Positions 325 through 22,222 of a stretch of DNA of 32,908 nucleotides are shown here, piece by piece (the first letter of the stretch is position 1; each line of letters opens with the position of its first letter). The translations under genes were made by a program, and so were the position numbers. The notes beneath the pieces are model-generated. The model saw only the letters and a list, made by a program, of their open reading frames with translations. It was not told the DNA's origin and did no database searches. Source of the DNA: a phage; NCBI GenBank assembly GCA_021421665.1, contig GCA_021421665.1_4698.1; one strand, 5' to 3'.

Positions 325-337
325 TCGATAAGTCAAG

Positions 338-366
338 GGTTGTCTCACACCTGAGACAGCCTTTTA
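338..366 (+). terminator. hairpin (ggttgtctca / tgagacagcc, loop CACC) followed by TTTTA; terminator-like
   Basis: 10-bp stem with one G-U pair, seen directly; T-rich tract follows immediately. Member of a three-copy GTCTCAC...GTGAGAC hairpin family (also 5661 and 22195). Confidence 0.5.
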
Positions 367-388
367 TCATATTGATTGGAGGTGCATT

Positions 389-496
389 ATGCCACGTGAT
401 TATGATTCTGATTGGGACTACTATGACTCAATGAATCCAAAACCTGAACATTCAGATGATTATTATTGGGTGGAGGAAATGTATGAAAACTATTAA
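389..496 (+). CDS. small acidic hypothetical protein (35 aa)
   Basis: ATG at 389 preceded by GGAGGT; sequence MPRDYDSDWDYYDSMNPKPEHSDDYYWVEEMYENY; below the 60-aa ORF-track cutoff. Confidence 0.3.
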   Translation: MPRDYDSDWDYYDSMNPKPEHSDDYYWVEEMYENY

Positions 497-695
497 ACTA
501 AGCAAAGTTTGCTCTTGCGGTAAAGGCTATCGTAGTCGTATCGATGGTAAGTGTGAAAACTGTAGAAGCCAGAAGGATAAGGATGTGCTCTACTTATTCT
601 GGCGTGATGTATCAATACTTGATGTGAGTCCTGATTCTTTAAAAGGTAAAGTTCTAAGATTAAACACTTTTGGAGCAATCTATGAAATCAATTGA
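483..695 (+). CDS. small Cys-rich protein (70 aa), possible zinc ribbon
   Basis: ATG at 483 with GGAGGA 5 nt upstream; CSCGK...CENC four-Cys arrangement; the ORF-track start at 456 lacks an SD. Confidence 0.45.
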   Translation: MKTIKLSKVCSCGKGYRSRIDGKCENCRSQKDKDVLYLFWRDVSILDVSPDSLKGKVLRLNTFGAIYEIN

Positions 696-3228
696 TTGGA
701 AGAAGGAAGCAGAAGGTCGTATCCTCGTCATGGACGCCGAAAGTAAAGGTCTTCTTGATGCTATCCGCTATGGTCATCGTGAAGATGTACACATCATTTG
801 CTGCATGGATTTGCTTACTACCGAGGAGTTCTTATTCTTCGACCCGTATGAGATGCGTGACCCTGAAGCAAGGGAGCGCCTGAAGGAATGGGAAGGGCAT
901 CAAGATGGTGACTTGGTTGATGGTGTTAACTTCCTGAAGCACTGTGAAGCTATCGTGTCACAGAACTTCCTAGGATATGACGGTCTTCTCTTTGAGAAAG
1001 CATTCCCTGCTATCTGGAAAGGTTTTAACTATACCGAGAGGCGAGGCAAGGGCAGACTCCGCGCTGACCTGTGTCCTGTGCGAGTCATGGACACGCTGGT
1101 GATGAGTCGCCTGTTAAACCCCGATAGGCGCCTCCCTCCGCAAGCATACGCCAAAGGTATGGGTAACGTCGCCCCTCACTCAATTGAGGCGCACGGCATC
1201 CGTATAGGCCGCTATAAACCGGAGAACAAGGACTGGTCTAAGCTGACCGACCACATGGTTCACCGTGTACGTGAGGACGTGGCGATTGGTCGTGACTTTT
1301 TCCTGTGGCTGTATAACGGGGAATGGGTGGAGCACAAACGCCGTGGCGTGAATAAACGTACTGGCCTAGGCATTGAGACAGCCTTCCACATGGAATCCAT
1401 TGTGGCGCTGGAGATGAGCCGTCAGGCCGAGCGCGGATTCCGTCTGGACATCGACAAGGCGTTAGCGCGATGCGAAGAACTGGACGCTAAGGTTGATGAG
1501 ACAGTCGCAGCGTTCCGTCCGCACATGCCTATGCGTATCAAGTCTAAACCTTTTAAACCGGAAGAAAAGAATGAAGTATGCCAACGCGCAAATGAGTATG
1601 GAGCTAGCAACAATATACCTACTATCCTGGACCCCTCTCACTTTCTTCACACAGAGAGACGAGGAGATCGCAAGACAGTATGGAGTGTCACTACTAAGTC
1701 TGGTGATTGGTCAGCTAGTGTCAAGAAAGACTTTCCTCACCTTAGAGGAAACCGTAATGACACGCCAAGCATCAAGTGGATTGGTGCTTACTCGCCTGTT
1801 ACTTTCGAAGAAATTCCCTTGGGTAACAGGGATACAGTTAAGCAAGTGCTCTATGATTATGGATGGAAGGGTGTTGAATTTAACGATACCGAGCAAGCGC
1901 ATCTGGATGAGCACGGAGTGTTACCCAAACCTTGGAGTGGAAAGATAAATGAGAAGTCCCTTACTTTATGGCAGGAAAGAGCCGCACGTGAAGGTAAAAC
2001 AGTCCCTGATTGGTGCTTGGGTATCGCTGCATGGTACATACTCGTATCCCGTCGTGGTCAGATACTCAACCGTGGTGACGTTGAAGCCTTCAACGAGAAA
2101 GGAACGTGGCCCTCGCAGGCTGGTGTACGAAAGTGTCGCGGCCTTGTACCTGTAGCTTTTAACAAGGAGTTAGGGATCAATGCGCAGCAATACTACGAGA
2201 GGTATGGGTGTTGGCCTACGTCTGACAAGGATGACGGAGAGTGGCGTGTGCCAGCTATTGCTATTAGCATTGGCACTTCTACGTTCCGTATGCGTCATCG
2301 TAACGTGGTTAATATTCCTGCCCGTGGCTTGTATCCTTTACGTGATTTATTCATAGCAGGTGAAGGTAAGTTAATCCTAGGCTGTGATGGTGCAGGTCTT
2401 GAACTACGTGTACTATCTCACTTCATGAATGACCCTGAGTACCAAGATATTGTACTGCACGGTGACATACATACGCATAACCAGATGAAGGCTGGTCTTC
2501 CTAAGCGGGATATGGCGAAGACATTTATATATGCTTTCCTTTACGGATCTGGTATAGCAAACCTTGCAGCAGTATGTGGTGTTACTGAGGAAGAAATGAA
2601 GGAAGTTGTGGCAAGATTCGAGATTGAACTACCATCTCTTGCACGTCTTCGTGAGAATGTTATTGCACAAGGCAACAAGTTTGGCTACCTACAAGCACCT
2701 GATGGACACTGGGGTCGCATCCGTATGTCTGGTGGTGAACTTAAAGAGCACACTATGCTTAACGTATTGCTACAGATGACTGGTTCTTTGTGTATGAAAT
2801 ATGCATTGGTTAAGGCATTTGCAGTGATGCGCAAGGAAGGTGTGGCCTTAGATGGTATGGGAAACCCTTGTGGTGTAGCTAACGTGCACGATGAAATCCA
2901 GATGGAAGTACCTGAAGACGAGGTATTATATCTTAACTACGACTTACCTTTCACCCTAGAAGGGTTTGAAACAGAGAAGGCTGCTGTGAAGGCAGTGTTC
3001 GATGCAGAGGAGAAACGTGTTCATGTTGATTCCGAAGGGCGCATGTGGTCGGCTGCTAACTTGGTTGAAGTGGATGCTACTGCTGGTGTGTTGCGTTGTC
3101 AGCGTCGCTACCACAGGGCTGGTCATATTATCGCTGACGCAATGACTTGGGCTGGTCAGTATCTGAAGATGCGTTGCCCGATGGCAGGCGAATATAAGAT
3201 TGGTGCAAGTTGGAAGGAGACACACTAA
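682..3228 (+). CDS. DNA polymerase, family A (T7 gp5-like), with N-terminal 3'-5' exonuclease region
   Basis: Pol I motifs read in translation: DGAGLELRVLSHFMND (motif A), RDMAKTFIYAFLYGSG (motif B), VHDEIQMEV (motif C); resembles recalled T7 gp5 blocks GLELRCLAHFM and AKTFIYGFLYGAG. Start taken at ATG 682 (GGAG upstream) rather than the TTG at 670. Confidence 0.95.
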   Translation: MKSIDWKKEAEGRILVMDAESKGLLDAIRYGHREDVHIICCMDLLTTEEFLFFDPYEMRDPEARERLKEWEGHQDGDLVDGVNFLKHCEAIVSQNFLGYDGLLFEKAFPAIWKGFNYTERRGKGRLRADLCPVRVMDTLVMSRLLNPDRRLPPQAYAKGMGNVAPHSIEAHGIRIGRYKPENKDWSKLTDHMVHRVREDVAIGRDFFLWLYNGEWVEHKRRGVNKRTGLGIETAFHMESIVALEMSRQAERGFRLDIDKALARCEELDAKVDETVAAFRPHMPMRIKSKPFKPEEKNEVCQRANEYGASNNIPTILDPSHFLHTERRGDRKTVWSVTTKSGDWSASVKKDFPHLRGNRNDTPSIKWIGAYSPVTFEEIPLGNRDTVKQVLYDYGWKGVEFNDTEQAHLDEHGVLPKPWSGKINEKSLTLWQERAAREGKTVPDWCLGIAAWYILVSRRGQILNRGDVEAFNEKGTWPSQAGVRKCRGLVPVAFNKELGINAQQYYERYGCWPTSDKDDGEWRVPAIAISIGTSTFRMRHRNVVNIPARGLYPLRDLFIAGEGKLILGCDGAGLELRVLSHFMNDPEYQDIVLHGDIHTHNQMKAGLPKRDMAKTFIYAFLYGSGIANLAAVCGVTEEEMKEVVARFEIELPSLARLRENVIAQGNKFGYLQAPDGHWGRIRMSGGELKEHTMLNVLLQMTGSLCMKYALVKAFAVMRKEGVALDGMGNPCGVANVHDEIQMEVPEDEVLYLNYDLPFTLEGFETEKAAVKAVFDAEEKRVHVDSEGRMWSAANLVEVDATAGVLRCQRRYHRAGHIIADAMTWAGQYLKMRCPMAGEYKIGASWKETH

Positions 3229-3326
3229 TGAAAACTGCTTTTATCATTCTTGGTATTATATTATTTATGGTAGTGTTCTGGGCTTTCTCTGGCATTGACC
3301 CAGATTGTGATGGTAACTACGACTGA
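3228..3326 (+). CDS. small hydrophobic protein (32 aa), putative membrane peptide
   Basis: ATG overlaps the polymerase stop (taATGa); MKTAFIILGIILFMVVFWAFSGIDPDCDGNYD has one predicted transmembrane stretch; below ORF-track cutoff. Confidence 0.3.
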   Translation: MKTAFIILGIILFMVVFWAFSGIDPDCDGNYD

Positions 3327-3385
3327 GTTATACTCAAGGTCACTTACTAGTGGCCTTTATGAATAACTTAAATGAGGCAAATACT

Positions 3386-3646
3386 ATGATTAAATACACT
3401 GCTTATCAATTAACTAAAGACCGTAAGATAGGTGTTGAGGTTAAAGCTTGGAATGAAGGACACATCACTGTAGTTATAGAGTGTCTCCAAGACAATGGTG
3501 TGATGCTAAGAAGCTACCGTTGCTTCACCAAATTACGCTGCAAGGATTTAACTGAAGAATTATTCTTACGTTGTATTGTTGAATCTATTAAACTTATTAG
3601 ACCCTACGCCAAGCAAGTTGTAGGTAATGTCACAGTAGTACATTGA
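3386..3646 (+). CDS. hypothetical protein (86 aa)
   Basis: ORF-track ORF 3350..3646; ATG at 3386 is preceded by GAGG at a suitable distance; in-frame alternatives at 3350 (GTG) and 3359 (ATG). Confidence 0.5.
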   Translation: MIKYTAYQLTKDRKIGVEVKAWNEGHITVVIECLQDNGVMLRSYRCFTKLRCKDLTEELFLRCIVESIKLIRPYAKQVVGNVTVVH

Positions 3647-3668
3647 TTTACTGGACACTATAGAAGGA
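3646..3668 (+). promoter_or_regulatory. SP6-type phage RNAP promoter ATTTACTGGACACTATAGAAGGA
   Basis: Matches SP6 promoter consensus ATTTAGGTGACACTATAGAAGAG at 19 of 23 positions; predicted +1 G at 3663; intergenic. Confidence 0.8.
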
Positions 3669-3732
3669 ATGCCTAGGTAATCTAGGTTTATAAGGTAGTA
3701 TAGGTAGTTAAGTAAATATAGGAGGTATAAAT

Positions 3733-4059
3733 ATGTCTATGGTGACTACTCTGGTATTCGTGGCTCAATACTTTCGTGGCTTATCTAATAAGTTTAAGCA
3801 GAAGGCTATCTTTGCAATTCAAGAGCGTATCAATAAAATTGAAGAAGAACAAGTAGATGTAGAAGAACATCGTAGTTCTCAAATGATTGACTGCCACAAC
3901 CGCTACTATGCATCTCGTGATGACCTTAATGCGCGTCAAGTCAAAGAGGTTGAAGAGATGCTGGCCGCCACCAGCAAGAGCGTGACAAACTGGAAGCTGA
4001 CTTCGAAGAGAACAAGGCACCCATCGCCCTTGTACATCAAGCCGCATCTGACAGCTTGA
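3733..4059 (+). CDS. hypothetical coiled-coil-like protein; C-terminal part may continue in the -1 frame to 4109
   Basis: AGGAGG SD before ATG 3733. A second frame is open 3954..4109, lacks a start of its own, encodes a coiled-coil-like peptide and ends at the SD of the next gene. Confidence 0.5.
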   Translation: MSMVTTLVFVAQYFRGLSNKFKQKAIFAIQERINKIEEEQVDVEEHRSSQMIDCHNRYYASRDDLNARQVKEVEEMLAATSKSVTNWKLTSKRTRHPSPLYIKPHLTA

Positions 4060-4118
4060 AGAAAGAGATTGTTATGCTGGAGATTGAACTGGACAACCTA
4101 ACTAAGTAAGGAGTTATG

Positions 4119-4415
4119 ATGGAAGAAGTGATTCAAGCTAAACATGTAGGTATCATCTTTCGTGATCTAGAGCAGCGTAAAGTTGCAGGTCATACCCGTT
4201 TGGCTAAAGAAGATGATACAGCAATCGCTACTGTTGAACAAGCAGATGCCTATCGTGGGCCAGAGTTTACTCAAGGTGAAACTTGTCACCAATTGAGCCT
4301 GTCACTTTGTGACACTATGGCTAGTGTGAATGTGCAAGAAGTTGAAGATGGAGACTGTGTTAGCTACGTCTACCCTCTGGACACTGTTGCACGTATTAAA
4401 GTAATTCATAAATAA
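4119..4415 (+). CDS. hypothetical protein (98 aa)
   Basis: AAGGAG at 4108-4113 is 5 nt before ATG 4119 (ATG 4116 is also in frame); stop abuts the next promoter. Confidence 0.55.
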   Translation: MEEVIQAKHVGIIFRDLEQRKVAGHTRLAKEDDTAIATVEQADAYRGPEFTQGETCHQLSLSLCDTMASVNVQEVEDGDCVSYVYPLDTVARIKVIHK

Positions 4416-4436
4416 TTACTGGACACTATAGAACAA
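4414..4436 (+). promoter_or_regulatory. SP6-type phage RNAP promoter AATTACTGGACACTATAGAACAA
   Basis: Core GGACACTATAGAA conserved; predicted +1 G at 4431; intergenic. Confidence 0.75.
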
Positions 4437-4506
4437 TAGGACGTGGGTTTGTCAGAGACAGTAAATCCAAGGTGCTCAGTGAGCGTAAAGCCTAAGCACG
4501 TCCTAT
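4436..4506 (+). promoter_or_regulatory. large stem-loop at the 5' end of the transcript (RNase III-site-like)
   Basis: ataggacgtg (4436-4445) is a perfect 10-bp complement of cacgtcctat (4497-4506), enclosing 51 nt with sub-hairpins; further hairpins at 4531-4547 and 4551-4565; 188-nt untranslated leader before ATG 4625. Confidence 0.4.
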
Positions 4507-4624
4507 GATTGTAAAGTGTTTAACCGCCTTTTGTGCATCTTGCACAACCCGAATCAATCGGGCTTTCTAGTGAGTACATGCTTGTGCTCAGTACAAAGCT
4601 AACTGACAATAGGAGACTAAATAA

Positions 4625-5431
4625 ATGGCACGTGGTGATTTTGATTTTGGTGCTCAGGTTACTAAAGCTGAAGGTAAAGTATTTAAGAACCCTGAAGTTG
4701 GTGATCATGAAGCAGTAATCTCTGGCATCATTCATGTTGGTTCCTTCCAAGATATCTTTAAGAAAGGCAATACCACTGAAGTTAAGAAGCCAGCAAACTT
4801 TGTGCTTGTTAAGATTGTCCTGATGGGTGACGATGACAAGAACGAAGATGACTCTCGCATGGAACAATGGATGGCTGTGCCTCTGAAGTCTGGTGACAAG
4901 GCAACCTTGACTAAATTCCTGAATGCAGTTGACCCTAAAGAGTTGCTAGGTGGCTTCGATGACTTCATCGGCGAATGTCTGACTGCAACTATGGTTGGCT
5001 CTGGAGACAAGAATGACGATGGCTCATTCAAGTATGTCAACTGGAAGGGCTTTGGTGGTATGCCGGATAAGCTGAAGAAACTTGTCATTGCTCAGGTTGA
5101 AGAGGAAGGTCTGTCTATGACAGGTCACATTACCTTCGACAAGCTGACCAAAGAAATCCTTGATGATATTCCAGCTAACTTGGTGCGTCAATATTTCCTG
5201 AATGAGACACCTCGTGGTAAGAACCTGTCTGTTGCTGGCTCTCACGTAGAAGCAATCATTAAAGCTGCTCGTGAAGAAGACCCAGAGTGGAAGAAGTCTA
5301 AGAAGAAAGAGGATGAAGATGCTACCCCAGCTAATCGTAAGCCTCTTGATACTGGTGAGACTGTTCCTCAGGAAGTACCGGAAGCAGACAATGCGCCTGC
5401 ACCGGAAATGGATGAGGACGCGGAATACTAA
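4625..5431 (+). CDS. hypothetical protein (268 aa) with acidic C-terminal tail; candidate ssDNA-binding protein
   Basis: AGGAGA SD; C-terminus ...APEMDEDAEY is acidic and ends in an aromatic residue, as in T7 gp2.5 (...DGDF). Functional call is inference only. Confidence 0.55.
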   Translation: MARGDFDFGAQVTKAEGKVFKNPEVGDHEAVISGIIHVGSFQDIFKKGNTTEVKKPANFVLVKIVLMGDDDKNEDDSRMEQWMAVPLKSGDKATLTKFLNAVDPKELLGGFDDFIGECLTATMVGSGDKNDDGSFKYVNWKGFGGMPDKLKKLVIAQVEEEGLSMTGHITFDKLTKEILDDIPANLVRQYFLNETPRGKNLSVAGSHVEAIIKAAREEDPEWKKSKKKEDEDATPANRKPLDTGETVPQEVPEADNAPAPEMDEDAEY

Positions 5432-5440
5432 GGAGGTGGG

Positions 5441-5659
5441 ATGAAAGTACAAATCGTAACCCTGCATTGCAAGAAGGGCATTACAACGCTTGGCGGTAAC
5501 ACTTTTCACTCCTTCTCTGAGGGTGAGACATACGCCGACCTGCACTACATCTGGCGCGATGGACAGCACGTGGTGAACTATAGTGACCCCACTACGGGGA
5601 AACGCCACGGCGTATCGCTTCCGGCGCATGACATTGCGCAGGTGAACACAGTTTTATAA
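5441..5659 (+). CDS. hypothetical protein (72 aa)
   Basis: GGAGGTGGG SD immediately upstream of ATG 5441; tightly packed after the preceding gene. Confidence 0.55.
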   Translation: MKVQIVTLHCKKGITTLGGNTFHSFSEGETYADLHYIWRDGQHVVNYSDPTTGKRHGVSLPAHDIAQVNTVL

Positions 5660-5660
5660 A

Positions 5661-5676
5661 GTCTCACACGTGAGAC
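5661..5676 (+). other. hairpin gtctca-CACG-tgagac (family member)
   Basis: 6-bp stem with tetraloop seen directly; no T-tract follows; lies between a gene end and the promoter at 5692. Confidence 0.3.
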
Positions 5677-5691
5677 AAATAGGTGTCCGGT

Positions 5692-5714
5692 ATTTACTGG
5701 ACACTATAGAAGAG
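5692..5714 (+). promoter_or_regulatory. SP6-type phage RNAP promoter ATTTACTGGACACTATAGAAGAG
   Basis: 21 of 23 match to the canonical SP6 promoter; predicted +1 G at 5709. Confidence 0.8.
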
Positions 5715-5764
5715 AAGAATTTTAATCGGCGATAATGCCACAACCAACAAAAGGAGAATTTAAT

Positions 5765-6130
5765 ATGTTCAAGATTGAAACTATCGTAAACCGTGTTGTT
5801 AAAGGTGCTGCTCTGGTATCCGTTGAGTCTTTCATTATCGTCGATGAAGCCGACCAACTGGTAGCTGGTACTAAGGCTTATGATACTCGTGAAGAAGCTC
5901 AGGCTAAAATTGACAGCATGGGTAACTTCGCTGCTGGTCTGGAGTTTGCTCGTGCTTGTTTCCCTGAGCAGGCTGACAAAGCTCAGATTGGTAAGGCTAA
6001 CATCGTAGCTGAGTATCTGGATTGGATTGCTGCTGGTAAACCCGTGAAAGAAGCTAAGGCTGAAGAAGCTGAAGTAGTAGAAGACGTAGCTGCACCGGAA
6101 GTACCGGTAAGCGAAGAAGAAGAGTTTTAA
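5765..6130 (+). CDS. hypothetical protein (121 aa) with acidic C-terminal tail ending in Phe
   Basis: AAGGAG SD 8 nt before ATG 5765 (ORF-track start 5735 lacks an SD); C-terminus ...PEVPVSEEEEF; own promoter upstream and terminator-like hairpin downstream. Confidence 0.6.
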   Translation: MFKIETIVNRVVKGAALVSVESFIIVDEADQLVAGTKAYDTREEAQAKIDSMGNFAAGLEFARACFPEQADKAQIGKANIVAEYLDWIAAGKPVKEAKAEEAEVVEDVAAPEVPVSEEEEF

Positions 6131-6136
6131 TTGATG

Positions 6137-6168
6137 CCCTGTCTGCCTTAGTGTAGGCAGGGTCTTTT
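6137..6168 (+). terminator. terminator-like hairpin (ccctgtctgc / gtaggcaggg) followed by TCTTTT
   Basis: 10-bp stem with two G-U pairs, then a T-tract; same sequence family as the hairpin at 15316. Confidence 0.5.
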
Positions 6169-6194
6169 GCGTAATAGTTATTGGAGAATGAATT

Positions 6195-6500
6195 ATGCCG
6201 ACTATTGGATCTCGTTTAGTAGCAGACTATGTTTATGGTTGTGACTTAAAGCTGGGACAAGATTATTTTAAAGTAATCGTCTTGCTGGATGGAGAAGTGT
6301 TTCACACTAAAACATTCACCCTACCTGAGTTATTTGATTTAGGTTATTGGGGTTATACTTATCAGGCCATAGCAGACAAGGTGCTACTCAGTGTATTAGA
6401 GGAGTGGCCTACATGCGACCAAACTTCGACTTCGGAGCTACAGTATCGGAAGACAATAATCTCATCCTGTGGCCGACTGAAGGTAATCGAATCGCTTTAG
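6195..6500 (+). CDS. hypothetical protein (101 aa)
   Basis: GGAGA SD before ATG 6195; its 3' end overlaps the exonuclease start by 88 nt, so its true extent is uncertain. Confidence 0.4.
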   Translation: MPTIGSRLVADYVYGCDLKLGQDYFKVIVLLDGEVFHTKTFTLPELFDLGYWGYTYQAIADKVLLSVLEEWPTCDQTSTSELQYRKTIISSCGRLKVIESL

Positions 6501-7441
6501 TAGATGCTGATATGTTGCCTTATATCGTAGGGTATACAATCAGTGACATGACTTATGTACGAGCCACAACTCGTGTTAAGTCAGGGCAAGTCCCATCAAT
6601 CAAAGATACACCTGAGTGTAAGCAAGCGTGTGACCGTGTGAACTCCCTGCTTAACTCTTGGGTGTATGCAGCAGAGTGTGATGCTGCTAAGTTATTCATG
6701 ACGAAATCCGAAGCTAACTTCCGTGTTCGCCTAGCATTCACCAAGCCTTATAAGGGTCAACGTAAGACCGAGAAGCCTCCATTCTTCTATGAATTGCGAG
6801 AGCATCTCTTAGAGGTTCACGGTGCAATCTTGGCAGATGGAGAAGAGGCTGATGACCTTATGAGCATCGCACAATGGGACAGCCACCGACGCTTCCAGCA
6901 AGATACAGGTAACGAGTTTCCTATCGGTAGTCCAGAGCATAAAACATTCTCTGATACTTGCATCGTTTCCTTAGATAAGGATTTGATGATTGTTCCCGGT
7001 TGGCATCTTCAGCCGGGTCAAGAGAAGAAGTGGGTAGAGCCTATGGGTTGGCTTGAGCTACGCCGTAAGGCTAATGGTCAAGTCAAAGACCTAAAAGGTG
7101 CTGGCCTCATGTTCCATTATGCACAGATGATTATTGGTGATGATATCGATAACTACTCTGGCATACCGGGTCGTGGCGCTAAGTATGCCTATGATCTTCT
7201 CAAAGGATGTAAGACAGAGAAAGATTTGTACATGGCAGTTCTTGGTGCTTACAAGGCTAAGTTTGGACATGGACAAGTTAAGATTAAGAATTACCGAGGT
7301 GGTTATCGTATCGGCAAAGCCTTTGACTTGATGCTTGAATGTGGTCGCCTAGCTCACATGGCAAGATTCAAAGGTGATATATGGCGAGCCGATAAGAACC
7401 CAATCTTGTGGGGAGATGATGCGGAATGGTTAGCAAATTAA
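6413..7441 (+). CDS. 5'-3' exonuclease (T7 gp6-like, FEN family)
   Basis: GAGGAG SD before ATG 6413; blocks IALVDADMLPY, SLDKDLMIVP and IIGDDIDNYSGIPGRG resemble recalled T7 gp6 blocks ILVMDGDWL, SCDKDFKTIP and IKGDITDGYSGIAGWG. Confidence 0.8.
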   Translation: MRPNFDFGATVSEDNNLILWPTEGNRIALVDADMLPYIVGYTISDMTYVRATTRVKSGQVPSIKDTPECKQACDRVNSLLNSWVYAAECDAAKLFMTKSEANFRVRLAFTKPYKGQRKTEKPPFFYELREHLLEVHGAILADGEEADDLMSIAQWDSHRRFQQDTGNEFPIGSPEHKTFSDTCIVSLDKDLMIVPGWHLQPGQEKKWVEPMGWLELRRKANGQVKDLKGAGLMFHYAQMIIGDDIDNYSGIPGRGAKYAYDLLKGCKTEKDLYMAVLGAYKAKFGHGQVKIKNYRGGYRIGKAFDLMLECGRLAHMARFKGDIWRADKNPILWGDDAEWLAN

Positions 7442-8836: not shown

Positions 8837-8853
8837 TTGACACTATAGAACAA
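8831..8853 (+). promoter_or_regulatory. SP6-type phage RNAP promoter ATTTAGTTGACACTATAGAACAA
   Basis: Overlaps the stop codon of the preceding gene; predicted +1 G at 8848; a hairpin (aagggta...taccctt) follows within the first 30 nt of the transcript. Confidence 0.75.
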
Positions 8854-8903
8854 AGGGTAGGTGCTAGCTTACCCTTGATTGTATAGTGAATGGAGGAATT
8901 AAT

Positions 8904-9443
8904 ATGTCACACTATGTATGTAAGAAATGCCATAATCGCTATGATAATTGCACCTGTGATTATAGTAAAGGTGAAAGAATTAAAGCAGGTGATTATGTTA
9001 TACGACGTGCTGGCTGCCGCACTTTAGAGTGGAATAAGGTATGTAACCAATTAGGAAAGAAAGGGGATGCAACATTCAAAGTTACAAAGGATGAGCCTGT
9101 CAGCAGCGCTATTATGCTTGAAGGTATCGAAAATAGAGAATGGTATGCACCTTATTTCGAGCGAGTAGCTGCTCCCCAAGTTGTATCTGAGTCCAACATG
9201 TTGGAAAACAATATGGTTACTCAGCCTAAGCACTACGAGTTCTTCGAAGGTGTAGAAGCAATCACTATCATTGCCCGTAGTATGACCGAGAAGCAATTCG
9301 CTGGCTATTGCATGGGTAACGCCTTGAAGTACCGCCTGCGTGCAGGTAAGAAGTTCAACACTGAAGAAGACCTGAAGAAAGCAGATTACTACAAAGAGTT
9401 ATTCCAGAAGCATCGTCACGAATGTATTGATGAGGACATTTGA
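8904..9443 (+). CDS. T7 gp1.7-like protein (nucleotide kinase family) with N-terminal Cys cluster
   Basis: C-terminal block ARSMTEKQFAGYCMGNALKYRLRAGKK...KADYYKELFQKH resembles recalled T7 gp1.7 (ARSMTVEQFKGYCFGNILKYRLRAGKK...KADFYKELFEKH); N-terminal CKKCHNRYDNCTC; GGAGG SD. Confidence 0.6.
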   Translation: MSHYVCKKCHNRYDNCTCDYSKGERIKAGDYVIRRAGCRTLEWNKVCNQLGKKGDATFKVTKDEPVSSAIMLEGIENREWYAPYFERVAAPQVVSESNMLENNMVTQPKHYEFFEGVEAITIIARSMTEKQFAGYCMGNALKYRLRAGKKFNTEEDLKKADYYKELFQKHRHECIDEDI

Positions 9444-9444
9444 T

Positions 9445-10749: not shown

Positions 10750-10753
10750 AGGG

Positions 10754-11340: not shown

Positions 11341-11349
11341 GGAGATAAC

Positions 11350-11556: not shown

Positions 11557-11557
11557 T

Positions 11558-13108: not shown

Positions 13109-14028
13109 TGTCTTTCTCATTTACTGAACCAACAACCACTCACCCTACTGCTGAAGGTAGTTCGGTAGAAACCAAGGAGGTAACAACTGATGCTGCTACT
13201 ACTGATATTCCTGCTGACACTGGCACTGATGTACAAGATGACAATGCTAGTGCGCAACCTACTGAAGACACCAGAGGAGAAGATTCTGGACAGCCTTCAG
13301 AAGAAGGAGACAATGGCGGAGAGAATGGTGAATCTAAGCCAGATGATACCAAGACCGACGCTGAGGAAGTGCAATACTTCTTCGGAGAACATGAAGTAAC
13401 AGTAGACATCCCACAGGATGTGACTGATAGCCTTAAAGAGAAAGGTATTGATGCTAAACAGGTTGCCAAGGAACTCTATTCAAAAGATGGCAAGTTTGAG
13501 CTGTCAGATGCAACCAAGCAGAAACTGTATGATGCCTTTGGGAAATTTGCGGTAGATGCTTACCTGTCTGGTCTTAAGGCGCAGAACGAGGCATTCTTCC
13601 TGAAAGAAGCCAATGCAGCTAAAGAGTTGGAAGCAGCTAATACCCAGCGATTCTCTGATGTTTCTAAGGAAGTTGGTGGGGAAGAAGGCTGGTCCCGTCT
13701 TGAGTCTTGGGCACTTGAGGCGTTGTCCGATGACGAACTCACGGCCTTCAATGAGGTTATGGCATCTGGCAACCAGTATCTCCAGCAGTACGCTGTGCGC
13801 GAACTGGAGAGCCGCCGTAAGGCCGCACAAGGTGATGACAAGCCAAACCTGATTGAGCCAACTGCACCTGCTGCCGCAACGGAAGACAACGGCCCACTTT
13901 CTCGTGAGCAATACATCCGTGAGATGATGACTCTTAATTCCCGCTTTGGTAAAGATAAGAAGGCGGCAGCAGAATATCAGGCTAAGCTGGATGCACGTCG
14001 TCGTGCGGGTATGGCTCGCGGATTGTAA
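13108..14028 (+). CDS. scaffolding protein (T7 gp9-like)
   Basis: 306 aa, strongly acidic and low-complexity N-terminus; start overlaps the portal stop (taATG); between portal and capsid. Confidence 0.8.
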   Translation: MSFSFTEPTTTHPTAEGSSVETKEVTTDAATTDIPADTGTDVQDDNASAQPTEDTRGEDSGQPSEEGDNGGENGESKPDDTKTDAEEVQYFFGEHEVTVDIPQDVTDSLKEKGIDAKQVAKELYSKDGKFELSDATKQKLYDAFGKFAVDAYLSGLKAQNEAFFLKEANAAKELEAANTQRFSDVSKEVGGEEGWSRLESWALEALSDDELTAFNEVMASGNQYLQQYAVRELESRRKAAQGDDKPNLIEPTAPAAATEDNGPLSREQYIREMMTLNSRFGKDKKAAAEYQAKLDARRRAGMARGL

Positions 14029-14034
14029 TTCAGT

Positions 14035-14057
14035 ATTTACTGGACACTATAGAAGGG
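14035..14057 (+). promoter_or_regulatory. SP6-type phage RNAP promoter ATTTACTGGACACTATAGAAGGG upstream of the capsid gene
   Basis: Predicted +1 G at 14052; the transcript begins with hairpin gggaga-AATG-tctccc at 14055-14070. Confidence 0.8.
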
Positions 14058-14107
14058 AGAAATGTCTCCCTAAATTATCAATTTGATTTATAAGGAGATC
14101 ATAATAC

Positions 14108-15307: not shown

Positions 15308-15315
15308 TACCTATG

Positions 15316-15348
15316 CCCTATCTACCTTGCGTAGGTAGGGTTCTTTTT
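15316..15348 (+). terminator. terminator-like hairpin (ccctatctac / gtaggtaggg) followed by TTCTTTTT
   Basis: 10-bp stem with one G-U pair, then a T-tract; immediately after the capsid gene, the position T-phi occupies in T7. Confidence 0.6.
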
Positions 15349-15361
15349 GTTAGGAGGATTC

Positions 15362-16099: not shown

Positions 16100-18504
16100 T
16101 GGAAGTACAAGGTTCATTAGGTAGACAAATCCAAGGCATAAGCCAGCAACCTCCAGCAGTGCGCTTAGATGGTCAGTGTACGGCTATGGTCAACATGGTC
16201 CCTGACGTAGTGAACGGAACACAATCCCGCATGGGTACAACTCACATTGCAAAGGTACTTGATGCAGGCACTGATGATATGGCTACTCATCATTATCGCA
16301 GGGGTGATGGTGATGAGGAGTATTTCTTTACTTTAAAGAAAGGACAAGTACCTGAAATCTTCGATAAGTATGGGCGTAAATGTAATGTAGCTTCTCAAGA
16401 TGCACCTATGACATATCTCAATGAAGTGGTTAACCCAAGAGAAGATGTGCAGTTCATGACTATTGCAGATGTGACATTTATGCTTAATCGTCGAAAGGTA
16501 GTTCGCACAAGGGAAGATCGTTCCCCTAATGTAGGTGCTACAGCTTTAGTCTTTTGCGCTTATGGTCAATATGGTACTATATATCAAATCATTATTAACG
16601 GTGCGGTGGCAGCAGAATATCGCACTAAAGATGGGGGAAGTGCAGACCACGTAGAGACAATACGAACAGAGGTTATAGCAGAACAGTTGTTTGTTAAGCT
16701 ACAGCAATGGTCCGGTGTAAGTGCATATGATGTATATCGAATGGGGACCACTATCGTTATCACCAGTAAATCCGGTGATACAGAGTTCACAGTAAACACA
16801 GAGGATGGTGCTAAAGGAAAAGATTTAGTTGCCATTAAATACAAGGTTAGCTCCACTGATCTTTTACCCAGTAAAGCGCCGGAAGGTTATAAAGTACAAA
16901 TATGGCCCACTGGAAGTAAACCTGAATCACGTTACTGGCTACAAGCCGAGAAGTCAGAGGGAAACCTTGTTACATGGAAAGAGACTATAGCTGCCGATGT
17001 TAAACTTGGTTTTGATAAAGGAACCATGCCTTACATTATTGAACGCACAGGAATCATTGATGGTATTGCGCAGTTTAGGATTAGACAAGGCGATTGGGAG
17101 GACCGCAAGGTAGGCGATGACCTTACTAACCCCATGCCCTCCTTCATTGATGATGAAGTTCCTCAGAAAATTGGTGGTATGTTTATGGTACAGAACCGCT
17201 TGTGCTTTACGGCAGGTGAAGCAGTCATTGCATCTCGTACTTCTTACTTCTTTGATTTCTTCCGATATACGGTGATCTCTGCTCTGGCCACAGACCCTTT
17301 CGACATCTTCTCCGATGCAAGTGAGGTTTATCAATTAAAACATGCAGTAACTCTTGACGGAGCTACGGTATTGTTCTCTGATAAATCCCAGTTCATCTTG
17401 CCGGGAGATAAGTCACTAGAGAAGGCTAATGCTTTACTTAAACCAGTAACAACTTTTGAAGTAAACAATAAGGTTAAGCCTGTTGCCACTGGTGAATCTG
17501 TGATGTTCGCTGCAAGTGATGGTGCATACTCTGGTGTGCGAGAGTTCTATACTGATTCTTATAGTGACACTAAGAAGGCACAGGCAATCACTAGCCATGT
17601 GAATAAACTCATTGAAGGCAACATTATAGGCATGGAGTCTAGTACGAATGTGAATAGACTACTTGTTACGACGGATAAGCATCGTAATATAATCTACTGT
17701 TATGACTGGCTATGGCAGGGCACAGATCGTGTTCAATCGGCTTGGCATATATGGGAGTGGCCTTTGGGTACAAAGGTGCGAGGTATGTTTTATTCTGGTG
17801 AACTGCTTTATCTGCTTCTTGAGAGAGGCAATGGTGTATATCTGGAGAAGATGGACACTGGTGATGCACTTACCTACGGTTTAAGTGATCGTATTAGAAT
17901 GGATAGGCAGGCAGAGTTGGTCTTCAACTATTTCAAAGCAGAAGATGAATGGATCTCTGAACCACTACCTTGGACCCCCACCCACCCAGAATTGTTGGAT
18001 TGTATCCTAATAGAGGGCTGGAACCCATATGTTGGAGGCTCTTTCTTATTCAGGTATAATTCCAGTAATAACACACTGTCTACAACTTTTGATATGCATG
18101 ATGGTGATCACGTAAAAGCAAAGGTTATTGTTGGACAACTTTACCACCAAGAGTTTGAACCAACACCTGTGGTTATCAGGGACAATCAAGACCGCGTATC
18201 ATATATTGATGTGCCTGTTGTGGGGTTGGTTCACCTCAACCTTGATATGTATCCCGATTTCTTAGTGGAAGTTAAGAATGTGAAGAGTGGTAAAGTGCGC
18301 AGAGTATTAGCGTCTAACCGCATAGGTGGTGCTCTCAACAATACAGTAGGTTATGTTAAACCTAGGGAAGGTGTCTTCAAGTTCCCACTGAGAGTTAAGA
18401 GCACTGATGTTGTTTATCGTATTATTGTAGAGTCGCCTCACACATTCCAGCTTCGTGATATTGAATGGGAGGGGAGTTATAATCCAACCAAGAGGAGGGT
18501 CTAA
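16099..18504 (+). CDS. tail tubular protein B (T7 gp12-like)
   Basis: N-terminus MEVQGSLGRQIQGISQQPPAVRLDGQ resembles recalled T7 gp12 MALISQSIKNLKGGISQQPDILRYPDQ; 801 aa; start overlaps upstream stop. Confidence 0.9.
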   Translation: MEVQGSLGRQIQGISQQPPAVRLDGQCTAMVNMVPDVVNGTQSRMGTTHIAKVLDAGTDDMATHHYRRGDGDEEYFFTLKKGQVPEIFDKYGRKCNVASQDAPMTYLNEVVNPREDVQFMTIADVTFMLNRRKVVRTREDRSPNVGATALVFCAYGQYGTIYQIIINGAVAAEYRTKDGGSADHVETIRTEVIAEQLFVKLQQWSGVSAYDVYRMGTTIVITSKSGDTEFTVNTEDGAKGKDLVAIKYKVSSTDLLPSKAPEGYKVQIWPTGSKPESRYWLQAEKSEGNLVTWKETIAADVKLGFDKGTMPYIIERTGIIDGIAQFRIRQGDWEDRKVGDDLTNPMPSFIDDEVPQKIGGMFMVQNRLCFTAGEAVIASRTSYFFDFFRYTVISALATDPFDIFSDASEVYQLKHAVTLDGATVLFSDKSQFILPGDKSLEKANALLKPVTTFEVNNKVKPVATGESVMFAASDGAYSGVREFYTDSYSDTKKAQAITSHVNKLIEGNIIGMESSTNVNRLLVTTDKHRNIIYCYDWLWQGTDRVQSAWHIWEWPLGTKVRGMFYSGELLYLLLERGNGVYLEKMDTGDALTYGLSDRIRMDRQAELVFNYFKAEDEWISEPLPWTPTHPELLDCILIEGWNPYVGGSFLFRYNSSNNTLSTTFDMHDGDHVKAKVIVGQLYHQEFEPTPVVIRDNQDRVSYIDVPVVGLVHLNLDMYPDFLVEVKNVKSGKVRRVLASNRIGGALNNTVGYVKPREGVFKFPLRVKSTDVVYRIIVESPHTFQLRDIEWEGSYNPTKRRV

Positions 18505-19232
18505 TGGCTATAGGTTCAGCCGTTATGGCTGGTATGTCTTCTATTGGCAGTATGTTTGCAGGTAGTGGTGCAGCAGCCGCTGCTGGAGGGACTGCCGCAA
18601 CAGTAGGTGGCGGAGGTTTACTAGGTTCCGTGGGAGGTTTCCTAAGTGGTTCCACTGGTGGCTTCTCCAATGCAGGCTTGCTTAGTGCAGGTATGCAAGG
18701 TCTAGGGCTTATAGGTAACCTTTTTGGTGGAAGGGATGAAGCCAAAGCTATGAAGAGGGCTCAGGAGGAGCAATGGCGGCAGCAGTTAATTGCTACGCAG
18801 GAGGCATACAAAACAGTGGCAGATGCAGAACGCTCTGCTGCTAAACAGTACCATGCCGACGCAATAAGTAATCAGGCTTCTCTGCTACAGCAGCGAGCAC
18901 AGGTTGCATTGCTTGCTGGTGCTACTGGTACTGGTGGTAACTCTGTGTCTTCTATGCTAAACGACTTAGCAGCAGAAGGCGGCAGGAACCAGAGTACAAT
19001 TATTGATAACTATGAGAATCAGAAGATTAACTTCACTAATCAGCTTAAGTCTATTCAGCGTGGCGGACAGATGCAAATGCGTGAGTTTAAGAAGCCTTCT
19101 GCTGTAAGCACCTTGGTTCAAGGTATCCCGAGTCTGGCTTCTGCCTATGTAACAGGTAGTAAATCGGGTATGGCATTAGGTAAAGCATTAACTGATTCTC
19201 GTACCTATTCATCTGGAACAAGAGGTATTTAA
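18504..19232 (+). CDS. internal virion protein (gp14-like)
   Basis: 242 aa with Gly/Ala-rich N-terminus and Gln-rich helical region; translationally coupled within the structural block. Confidence 0.65.
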   Translation: MAIGSAVMAGMSSIGSMFAGSGAAAAAGGTAATVGGGGLLGSVGGFLSGSTGGFSNAGLLSAGMQGLGLIGNLFGGRDEAKAMKRAQEEQWRQQLIATQEAYKTVADAERSAAKQYHADAISNQASLLQQRAQVALLAGATGTGGNSVSSMLNDLAAEGGRNQSTIIDNYENQKINFTNQLKSIQRGGQMQMREFKKPSAVSTLVQGIPSLASAYVTGSKSGMALGKALTDSRTYSSGTRGI

Positions 19233-22180
19233 TGGCAATTGAGCGACAAGCAGTACAAGGTCTGCCACAAGTGCAGGCCACTTCTCCTAATGTCATGACC
19301 TTTGCACCTCAGCGAGTTGGAGGTGTGGAGGCTGGCGTGGCTTCTACCTCCGGTAGTCGATTTATCGAAGACCTTATTCGAGCAGCCAGCAGTGTAGCTG
19401 ATGTTACCACTGGTATCCTTAATCAGAAGATTGAGGAAGATAAGGTTGTTCAAATGGAACGGGCATATAATGGACTGATGCCTTCTGAGGATGCAACTCG
19501 TGGCGGCGCTCGTGCTAACATGCTTGTCAAGGCTCAACTGCTGGCAAATGACGAAGCAGCACGGATGAAGGATATGGCTACTCGTTTCCAAGGAACGGAT
19601 GATGAGTGGACACAACTCATGGTTGATTCTCGTAATGAGATGCAGAATAAGCTGTTCCAGCAATACCCAGAGCTGCAAGGTGACAAAGATACAATGCGTA
19701 TGGTCACTAACGTCTTCCAAGAGCAGCAGCCTCAGATTTGGGCTACACGAACACAGCATAAACTTGACCGGGAACAGGCAGACCGTGAAGATACCTTTGA
19801 TGGGCGAGTGGCTTCTACTTGGGATTCCAGCATCGACCCAGAAGCCTCTGGTTATGCTTTACAGGAAAGAATCCGCGAAGGACTGACACAGGGCTTACTT
19901 CCTGAGCAGATGCACAAGAAGCTGGTGGCGCGGGCTATTTCACTTGCTCAGGGTGGTGATATCAGCATGGCTGAAGCCTTGAAGTACGTGAAGGACGATA
20001 AGGGTGTTTCTGTCTATGCTAAGAATCCGCAGCTTATCACAGCTATCACTAACGGTAATGCAGTTTGGGCTAGGAATAATGTTGCTGATGTGACTCGCAT
20101 GTCTTTTGAAGTCAAAGAATCCTATCTTGCAGGTGACTTGACGGATGAAGAATTACTGGAGCGAGCACAGCACATTAATAGCCTGACAGGGAACTCTGTT
20201 TTCTCTAATCCAGAACTAGAAGCATTGATGCGCCAACGAGCTAAGCAGAATGCAGAGCTAGGTGCAATGCAGGATATGCGACGTGAACTTTACTCTGACC
20301 GTATGACTGGCTTCCAAGGCAAGACGGATAAAGAGAAGAAAGCCTATGTTGATCTTATCAAGCAAGATAGTCAAACCTATGCAGACCAGCAAATCAAACA
20401 ACGAGGTGTGGACCCTTACAGCCAAGAGGCTGAAGCCATACGTGGTGAAGTAGAAGTACAGCGCCTGCAATTCATGAACTCAAAAGGGTTGGTGGATGAT
20501 ACCTTTGAATCCCGCATCAAAGCGATGGAGTCTTTGCTATCACCAGAGCACTTTGCTAAAGGTGAACCACAGGAATTACTGACCATTCGTAAATTGTGGG
20601 AGCAGCTACCTGAAGAGAGCCGAGGTGTCTTTGGTGACACTGTAAACGGTTATATGGATAATTACTCTACTGCCTTACAAATGGGTGAGACGCCTTTGCA
20701 GGCTGCAAGGTTTGCACGTGAAGCACAGCAGAAATTCTCTCGTACTGAGAAAGAAACTAAGAAGTTCAACTCAGCTATTGGAGATGCATTGGATGTAGTA
20801 TCAGGTGCTGGCTGGTTCGATGGTAAGACAGAAGTGTCTGACTTAGGTAAAGCTATTGCAGAAGAAGAACTACGGGCTAAGGCTAATATGTTGTGGTCTA
20901 GCGGTATGCGTAACATGGATTCCATCAAGAAGGCTTTAATTACTTGGGGCAATAAACGTTACACTCAATCAGAAGATGCAAAGACTTCCGGTGGCTATTT
21001 CATTAAAGGTGATTACACTTCTGCATCTGATATGCTTATGTCAGTTGGGAAAGGCGTAAATCCTACCGATGTACCTCTGGCACTTGGTAGGTATGTAGAA
21101 ACACAGATGCCAGAATTGAAGAAGGAACTTCAAGAGTGGGAAACTAAAGATGATATATACATTGATTACAATGAACAGAAAGGTACTTTCGTGATTCGTG
21201 CTGGTGCAGCAGGTCGCCCTCTTTCTGGAGTAACCCCTATAACCTCTTTAGATACCACTTCACTGCTAGATTCTGCCTATCAGAAGAAAGTAGAAGAACG
21301 AGATAAAGGTGAGTATGTTCACCCGTATCGTACAGATATTGGTGCACAAGAACCTATGCCAGCTAAGCCAACTGCCAAAGATATTGGTAAGTTTGGCCTA
21401 GCTAACTTTCTCATGTCTTCTGCTTTCGCCTCTGGTGAGAATCTACCTTCTAACTTCGAAATTAACTATCGAGGAAATATGCAACAATTCTATGACAAGT
21501 TAGCTATGGATGAGAACAAAGACAAGGTTGGCTTTAATAATGCAACTGGTACTTTTACTCCATACAAAGATGCTCACGGTGAATCTATTGGTTATGGTCA
21601 CTTCTTGACGGAGGAAGAGAAGCGGAACGGGTACATTAAGATCGGAGATGAATTAGTCCCGTATCGAGGGTCTATGTCTCAGCTTACAGAGAGCAAAGCT
21701 CGTGCTCTTATGGAGCAAGACGCTAAGAAGCATGTGCCACCCACTCGTGACTGGAAGATTCCATTTGACCAGATGCATCCTGCACAGCAACGTGGTTTGA
21801 TGGACTTAACCTACAATCTAGGTAAAGGTGGAATCCAAAATGCACCACGTGCTCTTGCTGCATTCAAGGCGGGTAAACTTACTGAAGGCTTTATCGAAAT
21901 GCTTGGCACTGCATCTAGTGAAGGTAAGCGTATCCCTGGCCTACTGAAGCGACGCGCTGAGGCTTACAATATGGCATCTGCTGGTGGTGTACCTAAGATT
22001 ACCGAAGTAGAAACTCGTGAAGATGGTTCTATGTGGGTTAAGTTCGGTGGACCTATGCCAGCAGGTTCTGTCTCAGCGTGGACTCATAAACGTATTGGTG
22101 CGGATGGCTGGTATCAAGTTTATGAGGCTGCACCTACCAAGTTAGCTAAAGGCTCTAAAGTAGGTAAAGTTAAGTTGTAG
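19232..22180 (+). CDS. internal virion (ejection) protein with C-terminal T4-lysozyme-like (GH24) domain
   Basis: 982 aa; C-terminal block YKDAHGESIGYGHFLT...GLMDLTYNLGKGG resembles recalled T4 lysozyme YKDTEGYYTIGIGHLLT...AINMVFQMGETG. Confidence 0.8.
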   Translation: MAIERQAVQGLPQVQATSPNVMTFAPQRVGGVEAGVASTSGSRFIEDLIRAASSVADVTTGILNQKIEEDKVVQMERAYNGLMPSEDATRGGARANMLVKAQLLANDEAARMKDMATRFQGTDDEWTQLMVDSRNEMQNKLFQQYPELQGDKDTMRMVTNVFQEQQPQIWATRTQHKLDREQADREDTFDGRVASTWDSSIDPEASGYALQERIREGLTQGLLPEQMHKKLVARAISLAQGGDISMAEALKYVKDDKGVSVYAKNPQLITAITNGNAVWARNNVADVTRMSFEVKESYLAGDLTDEELLERAQHINSLTGNSVFSNPELEALMRQRAKQNAELGAMQDMRRELYSDRMTGFQGKTDKEKKAYVDLIKQDSQTYADQQIKQRGVDPYSQEAEAIRGEVEVQRLQFMNSKGLVDDTFESRIKAMESLLSPEHFAKGEPQELLTIRKLWEQLPEESRGVFGDTVNGYMDNYSTALQMGETPLQAARFAREAQQKFSRTEKETKKFNSAIGDALDVVSGAGWFDGKTEVSDLGKAIAEEELRAKANMLWSSGMRNMDSIKKALITWGNKRYTQSEDAKTSGGYFIKGDYTSASDMLMSVGKGVNPTDVPLALGRYVETQMPELKKELQEWETKDDIYIDYNEQKGTFVIRAGAAGRPLSGVTPITSLDTTSLLDSAYQKKVEERDKGEYVHPYRTDIGAQEPMPAKPTAKDIGKFGLANFLMSSAFASGENLPSNFEINYRGNMQQFYDKLAMDENKDKVGFNNATGTFTPYKDAHGESIGYGHFLTEEEKRNGYIKIGDELVPYRGSMSQLTESKARALMEQDAKKHVPPTRDWKIPFDQMHPAQQRGLMDLTYNLGKGGIQNAPRALAAFKAGKLTEGFIEMLGTASSEGKRIPGLLKRRAEAYNMASAGGVPKITEVETREDGSMWVKFGGPMPAGSVSAWTHKRIGADGWYQVYEAAPTKLAKGSKVGKVKL

Positions 22181-22194
22181 TACCTAACTCAAGG

Positions 22195-22222
22195 CTTGTC
22201 TCACATGTGAGACAGGTCTTTA
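22195..22222 (+). other. hairpin cttgtctcac-AT-gtgagacagg followed by TCTTTAT (family member)
   Basis: 9 to 10-bp stem seen directly; T-rich tract follows; between the two large internal virion protein genes. Confidence 0.4.

Follow-up and report, generated by a model that had tools for sequence, protein, structure and literature searches.

Intergenic hairpins sharing a 16-nt core in an SP6/K1E-group phage: probable T7-type RNase III processing signals at two sites

The 32,908-nt stretch of phage DNA considered here (the window; contig GCA_021421665.1_4698.1 of GenBank assembly GCA_021421665.1) carries three intergenic hairpins built around the same short inverted repeat, GTCTCAC..GTGAGAC. 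Genome-level nucleotide matches assign it to Vectrevirus, among the K1E/K1-5-like phages of the SP6 group (Autographiviridae, Molineuxvirinae), with 93% identity to NIC06P3 and about 89% to K1E over about 24 kb. The window starts at gp11 and extends rightwards, leaving out the left ~10 kb of the genome, and gene names were taken from the K1E and K1-5 records. It holds eight SP6-type promoters (..CACTATAG..), all on the + strand. The hairpins follow gp11 (site 1), gp17 (site 2) and gp35 (site 3), and were compared with the whole genomes of ten relatives: K1-5, K1E, NIC06P3, CrRp3, SP6, UAB_Phi78 (UAB78), Klebsiella phage Kpp-61, Proteus phage Pm5460, Pectobacterium phage PP1 and Erwinia phage phiEa100.

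A first-pass annotation had placed near-identical hairpins at 338-361, 5661-5676 and 22195-22216, each directly after a stop codon and two of them followed by T-rich tracts. All three are present at these places, as are the stop codons (TAG 322-324, TAA 5657-5659 and TAG 22178-22180) and the tracts, TTTTAT at site 1 and TCTTTAT at site 3. The TAA of gp17 ends 1 nt before the site-2 core, TAG 322-324 lies within the lower stem of site 1, and TAG 22178-22180 overlaps the lower stem of site 3. Near-identity holds for a 16-nt tip common to all three; site 2 consists of this core only, unlike sites 1 and 3. At the latter, the earlier coordinates captured only part of the structures, whose upper stems span 335-364 and 22191-22220 and whose full two-helix forms span 323-377 and 22179-22233 (Table 1). 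Exact matches to GTCTCAC-N(0-20)-GTGAGAC occur in the window at 5661-5676 and 22198-22213 and in none of 100 dinucleotide-preserving shuffles, and the site-1 core at 342-357 is the same 16-mer with one mismatch, GTCTCACACCTGAGAC.

Folding of the RNA, which had been suggested as a check, yields strong structures at sites 1 and 3, with -27.9 kcal/mol (z -5.9) and -26.3 kcal/mol (z -4.5), respectively, in 65-nt folding windows; the antisense strands fold clearly worse than the + strand. Site 2 alone is a weak hairpin of 6-7 bp (-8.8 kcal/mol in a 51-nt folding window, z -1.2). Sites 1 and 3 follow a common plan in which an 8-bp lower stem is joined through a 4/5-nt internal loop to a 13-14-bp upper stem tipped by GTCTCAC..GTGAGAC. 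When the site-1 orthologues of 10 phages are aligned, the lower stem has 8 bp, the internal loop 4 nt on its 5' and 5 nt on its 3' side, and the upper stem 14 bp. Paired cells make up 99.1% of this alignment and 9 of its 22 pairs have changes on both sides, against 30-46% paired cells and at most one compensatory pair in slid controls, where pairing partners were displaced by 1-3 columns. Pooling the site-1, site-3 and post-helicase sequences (n = 24) in an alignment fitted to a covariance model, and hence biased towards the structure, gives 98.3% paired cells and 11 of 22 compensatory pairs (slid, 36-42% paired). G.U pairs are kept in this alignment between columns 9 and 62 (21/24) and between columns 25 and 45 (20/24).

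A covariance model built from site 1 alone finds site 3 and the post-helicase sites at full length in all genomes (E 1e-10 to 1e-4). Site 3 of the window scores 55.6 bits (E 9.5e-10) on the sense strand versus 22.3 bits on the antisense strand; at site 2 the match is limited to the 16 core positions (14 bits). The strong sense-over-antisense scores, the conserved G.U pairs and the covariation thus point to a structured sense-strand RNA at sites 1 and 3.

This architecture is also that of the RNase III sites of T7 and T3. The cleavage coordinates in T7 we take to be 890, 1468, 5887, 13892, 36856 and others (Dunn & Studier, 1983), and the sequence at these positions reads ACTCAAGG-hairpin-CCTTTAT↓GAT in most canonical sites (the arrow marks the cut). 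T7 records as displayed carry no RNase III features. The T3 record does and was used for validation; within its first 8 kb, five stem-loops are annotated as 'RNase III recognition site', most of them with the T7 flank motif. At site 3 the flanks, aACTCAAGG[CTT-core-AGG]TCTTTAT↓GATAGG, fit the T7 and T3 consensus, and at site 1 they form a variant of the T7 consensus, AGTCAAGG[GTT-core-AG]CCTTTTAT↓CAT. Written as RNA, the flank motif ACUCAAGG...CCUUUAU↓GAU is borne by site 3, in variant form by site 1, and exactly by a further structure at 3324-3370. Site 2, flanked by AAA/AAA, has neither an extended stem nor RNase III flanks. The T7 consensus structure comprises 9 bp, a 4/5 loop and 10 bp; helices of about two turns with an asymmetric internal loop are likewise found at sites 1 and 3, and not at site 2 with its 6-7 bp.

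A second covariance model, derived from seven T7 sites only, recovered the held-out T7 site R6.5 and exactly the five annotated T3 sites (5/5) in 8 kb, with no other sense-strand match at E<1. This T7 model matches site 3 at full length on the sense strand (33.7 bits, E 1.9e-4) as well as every site-3 orthologue. Site 1 is aligned at full length and with the same architecture at 19.6 bits, while site 2 failed the test, giving no match (at most 6 bits). The structure at 3324-3370, downstream of the DNA polymerase gene, is matched at window positions 3314-3378 with 46.1 bits (E 1.5e-7). It reads UGAGUUAU-ACUC-AAGGUCACU-UACU-AGUGGCCUU-UAU↓GA-AUAACUUA as RNA and GAGTTATACTCAAGGTCACTTACTAGTGGCCTTTAT↓GAATAAC as DNA, which puts the predicted cut at U3360↓G3361. 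It folds at -18.2 kcal/mol (z -3.5; antisense z -1.3) and is kept in K1-5, K1E, SP6 and CrRp3.

Two weaker matches to the T7 model (E 0.01-0.02) were seen in relatives, in a part of the genome that the window does not reach. One, at 2267-2330 of K1E, lies immediately upstream of an ocr-like gene, like T7 R0.3; the other, at 2524-2587 of UAB78, lies further downstream, just before I132_gp11.

Table 1. Hairpin structures of the window, their predicted elements, and copies of the core in related phages
Feature	Position	Strand	Remarks
Site 1, putative RNase III-type processing structure	323..377	+	between gp11 (stop 322-324) and gp11.5 (ATG 389)
Site 1 lower stem	323-330/370-377	+	predicted fold
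Site 1 internal loop	331-334 (AGUC) and 365-369 (UAUCA)	+	predicted fold
Site 1 upper stem	335-347/352-364; loop 348-351; core 342-357	+	predicted fold
Site 1 predicted cut	U367↓C368	+	analogy with T7 CCUUUAU↓GAU
Canonical T7-type RNase III site (predicted), without GTCTCAC core	3324..3370	+	downstream of DNA polymerase gene
Site 2, core hairpin only, GTCTCAC-AC-GTGAGAC, 6-7-bp stem	5661..5676	+	exact match
Promoter hairpin beside site 2, GGUGUCCGGU-AUUU-ACUGGACACU, 10 bp	5682..5705	+	five nt after site 2
Site 3, putative RNase III-type processing structure	22179..22233	+	between gp35 (stop 22178-22180) and gp36 (ATG 22245)
Site 3 lower stem	22179-22186/22226-22233	+	one A.C mismatch
Site 3 internal loop	22187-22190 (ACUC) and 22221-22225 (UAUGA)	+	predicted fold
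Site 3 upper stem	22191-22220; core 22198-22213	+	predicted fold
Site 3 predicted cut	U22223↓G22224	+	by analogy with T7
Core form GTCTCAC/GTGAGAC			Vectrevirus (5-6 copies), phiEa100 (4)
Core form GTCCAAC/GTTGGAC			Kpp-61 (9), Pm5460 (6), PP1 (7)
Core form GTCTAAC/GTTGGAC (U.G form)			SP6 6/8 copies, UAB78 7/8; remainder GTCCAAC
Core copies in phi-A318	2940, 4686, 6290, 6970, 9607, 14845, 18050, 25014, 41779
Core copies inside genes	K1-5 7000-7020; SP6 7071; UAB78 7640, 4964; Kpp-61 6777, 18779; PP1 8194, 20123		primase-helicase, RNA polymerase, ligase, kinase

The properties of known substrates fit these structures. RNase III of E. coli acts on substrates of about two helical turns, is limited by an internal loop to a single phosphodiester cut that leaves a protective 3' hairpin, and favours adjacent U-A and U.G pairs as a 'distal box' (PMC1540722). 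Such adjacent pairs, U-A (24/24) and U.G (20/24), are conserved in the 24-sequence alignment. T7 transcripts are processed at multiple RNase III sites (PMC4858673), of which R0.5 and R1.1 are efficient (PMC3643576). By analogy, with a probability of roughly 0.65, sites 1 and 3 and the structure at 3324-3370 are T7-type RNase III processing signals, the first two with a distinctive apical module. Long polycistronic transcripts would contain at sites 1 and 3 a helix of about 22 bp broken by the asymmetric 4/5-nt loop. Host RNase III, once bound to this helix, would introduce a single nick in the 3' strand of the loop. Cleavage would leave the upstream message (gp11 or gp35) with the stable upper hairpin at its 3' end, as a block to 3' exonucleases, and the downstream message (gp11.5-DNA polymerase, or gp36 onward) would start about 20 nt ahead of its ribosome-binding site. 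The GTCTCAC..GTGAGAC core would form the apical part of the upper stem.

Several points weigh against this interpretation. Site 1 is weak in the T7 model, with a whole-window E of roughly 0.05 when scaled from a 201-nt search. The upper stem exceeds that of T7 by 3-4 bp, and the U-A/U.G pair lies 2 bp nearer the internal loop than in R1.1, so that the exact position of the cut is uncertain. For the T7 cut coordinates, the only support comes from their agreement with one another and from the T3 annotation. The literature searched makes no mention of RNase III sites in SP6-like phages, although earlier descriptions cannot be excluded. In phiEa100, the site-1 and site-3 orthologues have unrelated tips and the core occurs only in stand-alone copies, and the core is therefore dispensable for the RNase III-type structure. 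Since RNase III needs no fixed tip, processing also does not explain why the core is near-invariant, why it has variants, or why it recurs alone and inside genes.

Site 2 needs a different account. A hairpin of 34 nt is the smallest substrate of RNase III, activity being lost below that length; with its 7-bp stem, site 2 falls short of this size and is not expected to be a substrate by itself. Orthologues of site 2 occupy this position in 11 phages, Vibrio phage phi-A318 among them, and the site is closely followed by a second hairpin (5682-5705) containing an 'anti-promoter' that pairs with the -13 to -4 segment of the gp18 promoter (about 5692-5714; +1 = G5709). Together, the site-2 core hairpin and the promoter hairpin have a minimum free energy of -22.4 kcal/mol (z -4.8). 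Anti-promoter and promoter change together as GTGGTCT/AGACCAC in Pm5460, CCGCCC/GGGCGG in PP1 and GUGUCUC/GGGACAC in SP6, and the AGGGC/GCCCT pair of phi-A318, at the syntenic gp17/gp18 position, does so too. These changes were read from individual folds, as fixed alignment columns misalign PP1 and Pm5460 by loop length. Site 2 is the apical module on its own, with the gp17 stop codon on one side and, on the other, a hairpin that in read-through RNA would sequester the promoter of gp18. Its role, the weakest part of the account, is most likely that of an RNA-level intercistronic element, which might act as a 3' end or as an insulating element ahead of the promoter.

Similar arrangements are seen at other promoters. 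Ahead of those at about 30448-30470, 14028-14050 and 3639-3661, the -12..-5 region of the promoter is repeated as a short inverted copy, for instance TCACCTA-cgatt-TAGGTGA at 30465 and TCAGTA-ttt-ACTGGA at 14045, so that read-through RNA would hold the promoter sequence in a hairpin. Site 2 offers the strongest example. In K1-5 (about 6045-6060) and its orthologues, transcripts from the first promoter after the RNA polymerase (RNAP) gene start with a conserved 5' hairpin, CCGTC-GGA-GACGG, which co-varies as CCATC/GATGG in CrRp3, NIC06P3 and PP1. The gene downstream of site 2, gp18, has a likely start at 5765 and a stop at 6130, belongs to a PHROG of unknown function and has no Pfam or PDB relative. 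Its unit (5692-6170) is self-contained, with its own consensus promoter and terminator, which suggests very high or separately controlled expression.

The core itself extends well beyond the window. In the form GTC-xyz-C-N2-3-G-z'y'x'-GAC it is present in the genomes of all ten relatives, as discrete variants (TCTCAC/GTGAGA, TCCAAC/GTTGGA, TCTAAC/GTTAGA and the U.G form TCTAAC/GTTGGA) that are largely uniform within a genome. Conserved places include two after the RNAP gene, each just upstream of a promoter, and one after the primase-helicase gene, in addition to gp11/gp12 (site 1), gp17/gp18 (site 2) and gp35/gp36 (site 3). Stand-alone cores lie 0-26 nt upstream of phage promoters in every genome and genus examined. 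Phage phi-A318, of another subfamily (Colwellvirinae; NC_025822), carries nine copies of GTCTCAC-NNN-GTGAGAC and two extended core sites; its early region also holds four RNase III sites of the classical T7 type (937-1004, 1903-1969, 2872-2937 and 38697-38763). A distant 44-kb metagenomic contig has four stand-alone cores between stop codons and ribosome-binding sites. The arms are thus identical between phages that otherwise have no nucleotide similarity, and the conservation of the stem sequence itself, which the first-pass annotation had taken as a sign of sequence-specific function, proved stronger than first seen, with the same 7+7 arms in other genera and another subfamily. Single-copy IMG/VR matches of the 14-specified-base pattern were close to a rough chance expectation and were disregarded. 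In phiEa100, two tandem cores 19 nt apart (7068-7118) form one 17-bp hairpin with a promoter-like loop sequence (ATTAACCACCCAGG), resembling T7 R6.5, an RNase III site with a promoter in its loop.

The motif is not equally frequent in coding regions: all six K1E copies are intergenic in a genome with 9.6% non-coding sequence (chance P about 8e-7), and the relatives have few copies inside genes. At the same codons of the primase-helicase gene, SP6, UAB78, Kpp-61 and PP1 each have a copy in the variant of their own genome. In K1-5 and K1E, the left arm of this copy matches the local variant although this entails an N->H change, whereas the right arm has stayed unconverted because a matching arm would create an in-frame TGA stop. 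Within the RNAP gene, UAB78 and phi-A318 share the position of a core but not its reading frame, and in UAB78 three synonymous changes in the codons for VSNVLD produce a perfect core. Nearly all intragenic cores translate as the peptide S-N-x-L-D. At site 3 the core forms a perfect palindrome of 18 bp; the SP6/UAB78 variant is asymmetric in 13/13 copies. Such behaviour points either to a factor that reads the sequence specifically or to active homogenisation of the copies.

Termination was among the functions first proposed for the hairpins, next to RNase III processing and protein binding, and it fares worse than processing, for which structure, covariation, T7/T3 flanks and the T7 model all speak. 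As intrinsic (class I) terminators or attenuators for phage or host RNAP, sites 1 and 3 would tune the expression of downstream genes, for example gp36 relative to gp35. With -20 to -21 kcal/mol their hairpins are stable, and UUUUAU or UCUUUAU comes after them; the Pm5460 record labels the post-helicase orthologue (9147-9189) a 'rho-independent terminator', and the seven RNAP terminators credited to SP6 (PMC11347151) would fit if such hairpins were counted, as may be suspected. However, the first three U's pair with the upstream A/G tract and the remaining ones lie in the internal loop; by terminator scan and folds, none of sites 1, 2 and 3 has the G+C-rich hairpin followed by an unpaired run of at least five U's that marks class I. 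The scan lists 6136-6163 and 15315-15341 instead. The validated terminator type of the group has a GC-rich stem and U5-6, as in SP6 t5, to which window 15315-15341, after the major capsid gene, is almost identical, differing by one base in the trailing T run only; t5, the only one of these with published termination data, gives 85% termination with SP6 RNAP (PMC11347151 and supplement). The window thus has two similar strong terminators, 15315-15341 and, after gp18, 6136-6163 (GCCCTrTCTrCC...GGyAGGG and a T run). The CCUUUAU↓GAU tail, moreover, belongs to the RNase III sites of T7 and T3, which have one phage-RNAP terminator each, and termination makes no use of a covarying lower stem or a 4/5 internal loop. 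Site 3 also lies upstream of gp36, gp37 and others, and because the next phage promoter comes only at about 26695, efficient termination there would starve essential genes. A terminator function at sites 1 and 3 is accordingly judged quite unlikely. The T7-type class II pause signal (ATCTGTT) is absent from the hairpins.

For the core, two explanations that leave RNase III aside have to be considered. It may be a sequence-specific element for a trans-acting factor, a phage or conserved host protein recognizing an RNA hairpin or a DNA palindrome, which could control adjacent promoters or mark RNAs for processing or protection. Identical 7+7 arms in Vectrevirus, phiEa100, phi-A318 and the unrelated metagenomic contig would follow, as would the genome-wide discrete variants, the stand-alone copies before promoters, their sole retention in phiEa100, and the intragenic copies that follow the variant of their genome despite the N->H change in the helicase. 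Yet variants coexist (K1-5 has five copies of one form and one each of two others, CrRp3 five and one), the sense-strand U.G asymmetry of SP6 and UAB78 fits an RNA stem better than a DNA operator, and no candidate protein emerged among the neighbouring genes: gp11, gp12 and gp15-gp19 have no informative Pfam family, most fall into PHROGs of unknown function, and no PDB relative was found for gp16 and gp18. Recombination between copies could, in addition, produce concerted evolution without any trans factor. The same copies could also be repeats homogenised by recombination or gene conversion, stem-loop-plus-promoter cassettes that aid modular exchange and have no specific function beyond the hairpin. 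Uniform variants, the helicase copy converted on its left arm only, the perfect core imposed on the UAB78 RNAP gene, and the single 'foreign' variants at conserved sites in K1-5 and CrRp3 are all consistent with such mosaic exchange. A 16-nt repeat is, however, short for efficient homologous exchange, and identity across phages of different hosts would need selection or very frequent exchange. The places themselves (after the RNAP and helicase genes, before the polymerase gene, at gp17/gp18 and gp35/gp36) are conserved across genera and subfamilies, which argues for function at each place, not mobility. A trans factor independent of RNase III thus appears unlikely, and homogenisation as the sole explanation very improbable.

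The core, GUCUCAC-NN-GUGAGAC with its co-varying variants, might also be a separate, sequence-specific RNA or DNA module of the Autographiviridae that is read by a conserved phage or host factor, a tentative proposal that we consider doubtful as it stands. The core is found in three settings: at the tip of RNase III-type sites, alone just upstream of promoters of the single-subunit RNAP, and inside the RNAP and primase-helicase genes. As such a module, it would have switched specificity in concert across whole genomes several times, and it would add a further, new level to the control of gene expression in the T7 supergroup. No familiar host operator, whether of LexA, of the LacI type or another, and no restriction site or T7-type primase site (GTC) is known to fit the core; SP6 primase has been reported to use GCA. 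In a search of the whole window, no Rfam family was matched, Rfam having no family for T7-type RNase III sites; a literature search for the core 16-mer found nothing, although earlier descriptions cannot be excluded; and a gp36-based search for related loci returned close relatives only.

SP6/K1E-group phages are employed in capsule-targeted therapy and are the source of SP6 RNA polymerase. Their records carry no RNA-processing signals (those of K1E, K1-5 and SP6 contain coding-sequence features only), and some call these hairpins terminators. The RNase III reading, if right, would correct this annotation, predict mRNA ends and imply that the T7 processing signal is conserved across Autographiviridae subfamilies. 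To a T7 specialist this part would be ordinary, though apparently unannotated in the SP6/K1E group; the behaviour of the core is the unusual one. Found in coliphages and in Erwinia and Vibrio phages, and imposed even on coding sequence, the core offers a handle on a possible factor or a homogenising process.

Among known systems, class I terminators such as T7 Tphi and SP6 t5 resemble sites 1 and 3 in being stable intergenic RNA hairpins followed by some U residues. The SP6 t5 type (GCCCUAUCUACC...GGUAGGGUUCUUUU) is nevertheless unlike them, as sites 1 and 3 have only a small number of U's, broken up and in part base-paired, together with a conserved lower stem and an internal loop. Short multi-copy intergenic hairpins that are often paired with promoters and uniform within a genome are also found as promoter early stem-loop (PeSL) cassettes in T4-type phages and as repetitive extragenic palindromic (REP) sequences in enterobacteria, for which stabilisation of upstream mRNA or modular exchange has been proposed. 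In contrast to these, the core precedes promoters of a single-subunit RNAP and is partly embedded in RNase III-type structures; its arms are constant across subfamilies and hosts, and evidence of mobility was not obtained.

The closest likeness is to the RNase III sites of T7 and T3, which are also intergenic, specific to the sense strand and composed of a lower stem, a 4/5 loop and an upper stem. They differ in that the T7 upper stem has 9-10 bp instead of the 13-14 bp of sites 1 and 3, and in that its tip is GGUC...GUGGCC, where the sites described here have a near-invariant, palindrome-like module of 16 nt. This module also stands alone and inside genes, which is not described for T7. The two groups nonetheless share a frequent placement just upstream of phage promoters, and the stand-alone cores that precede promoters have a parallel in T7, where R1.1 comes before phi1.1B and R4.7 before phi4.7.

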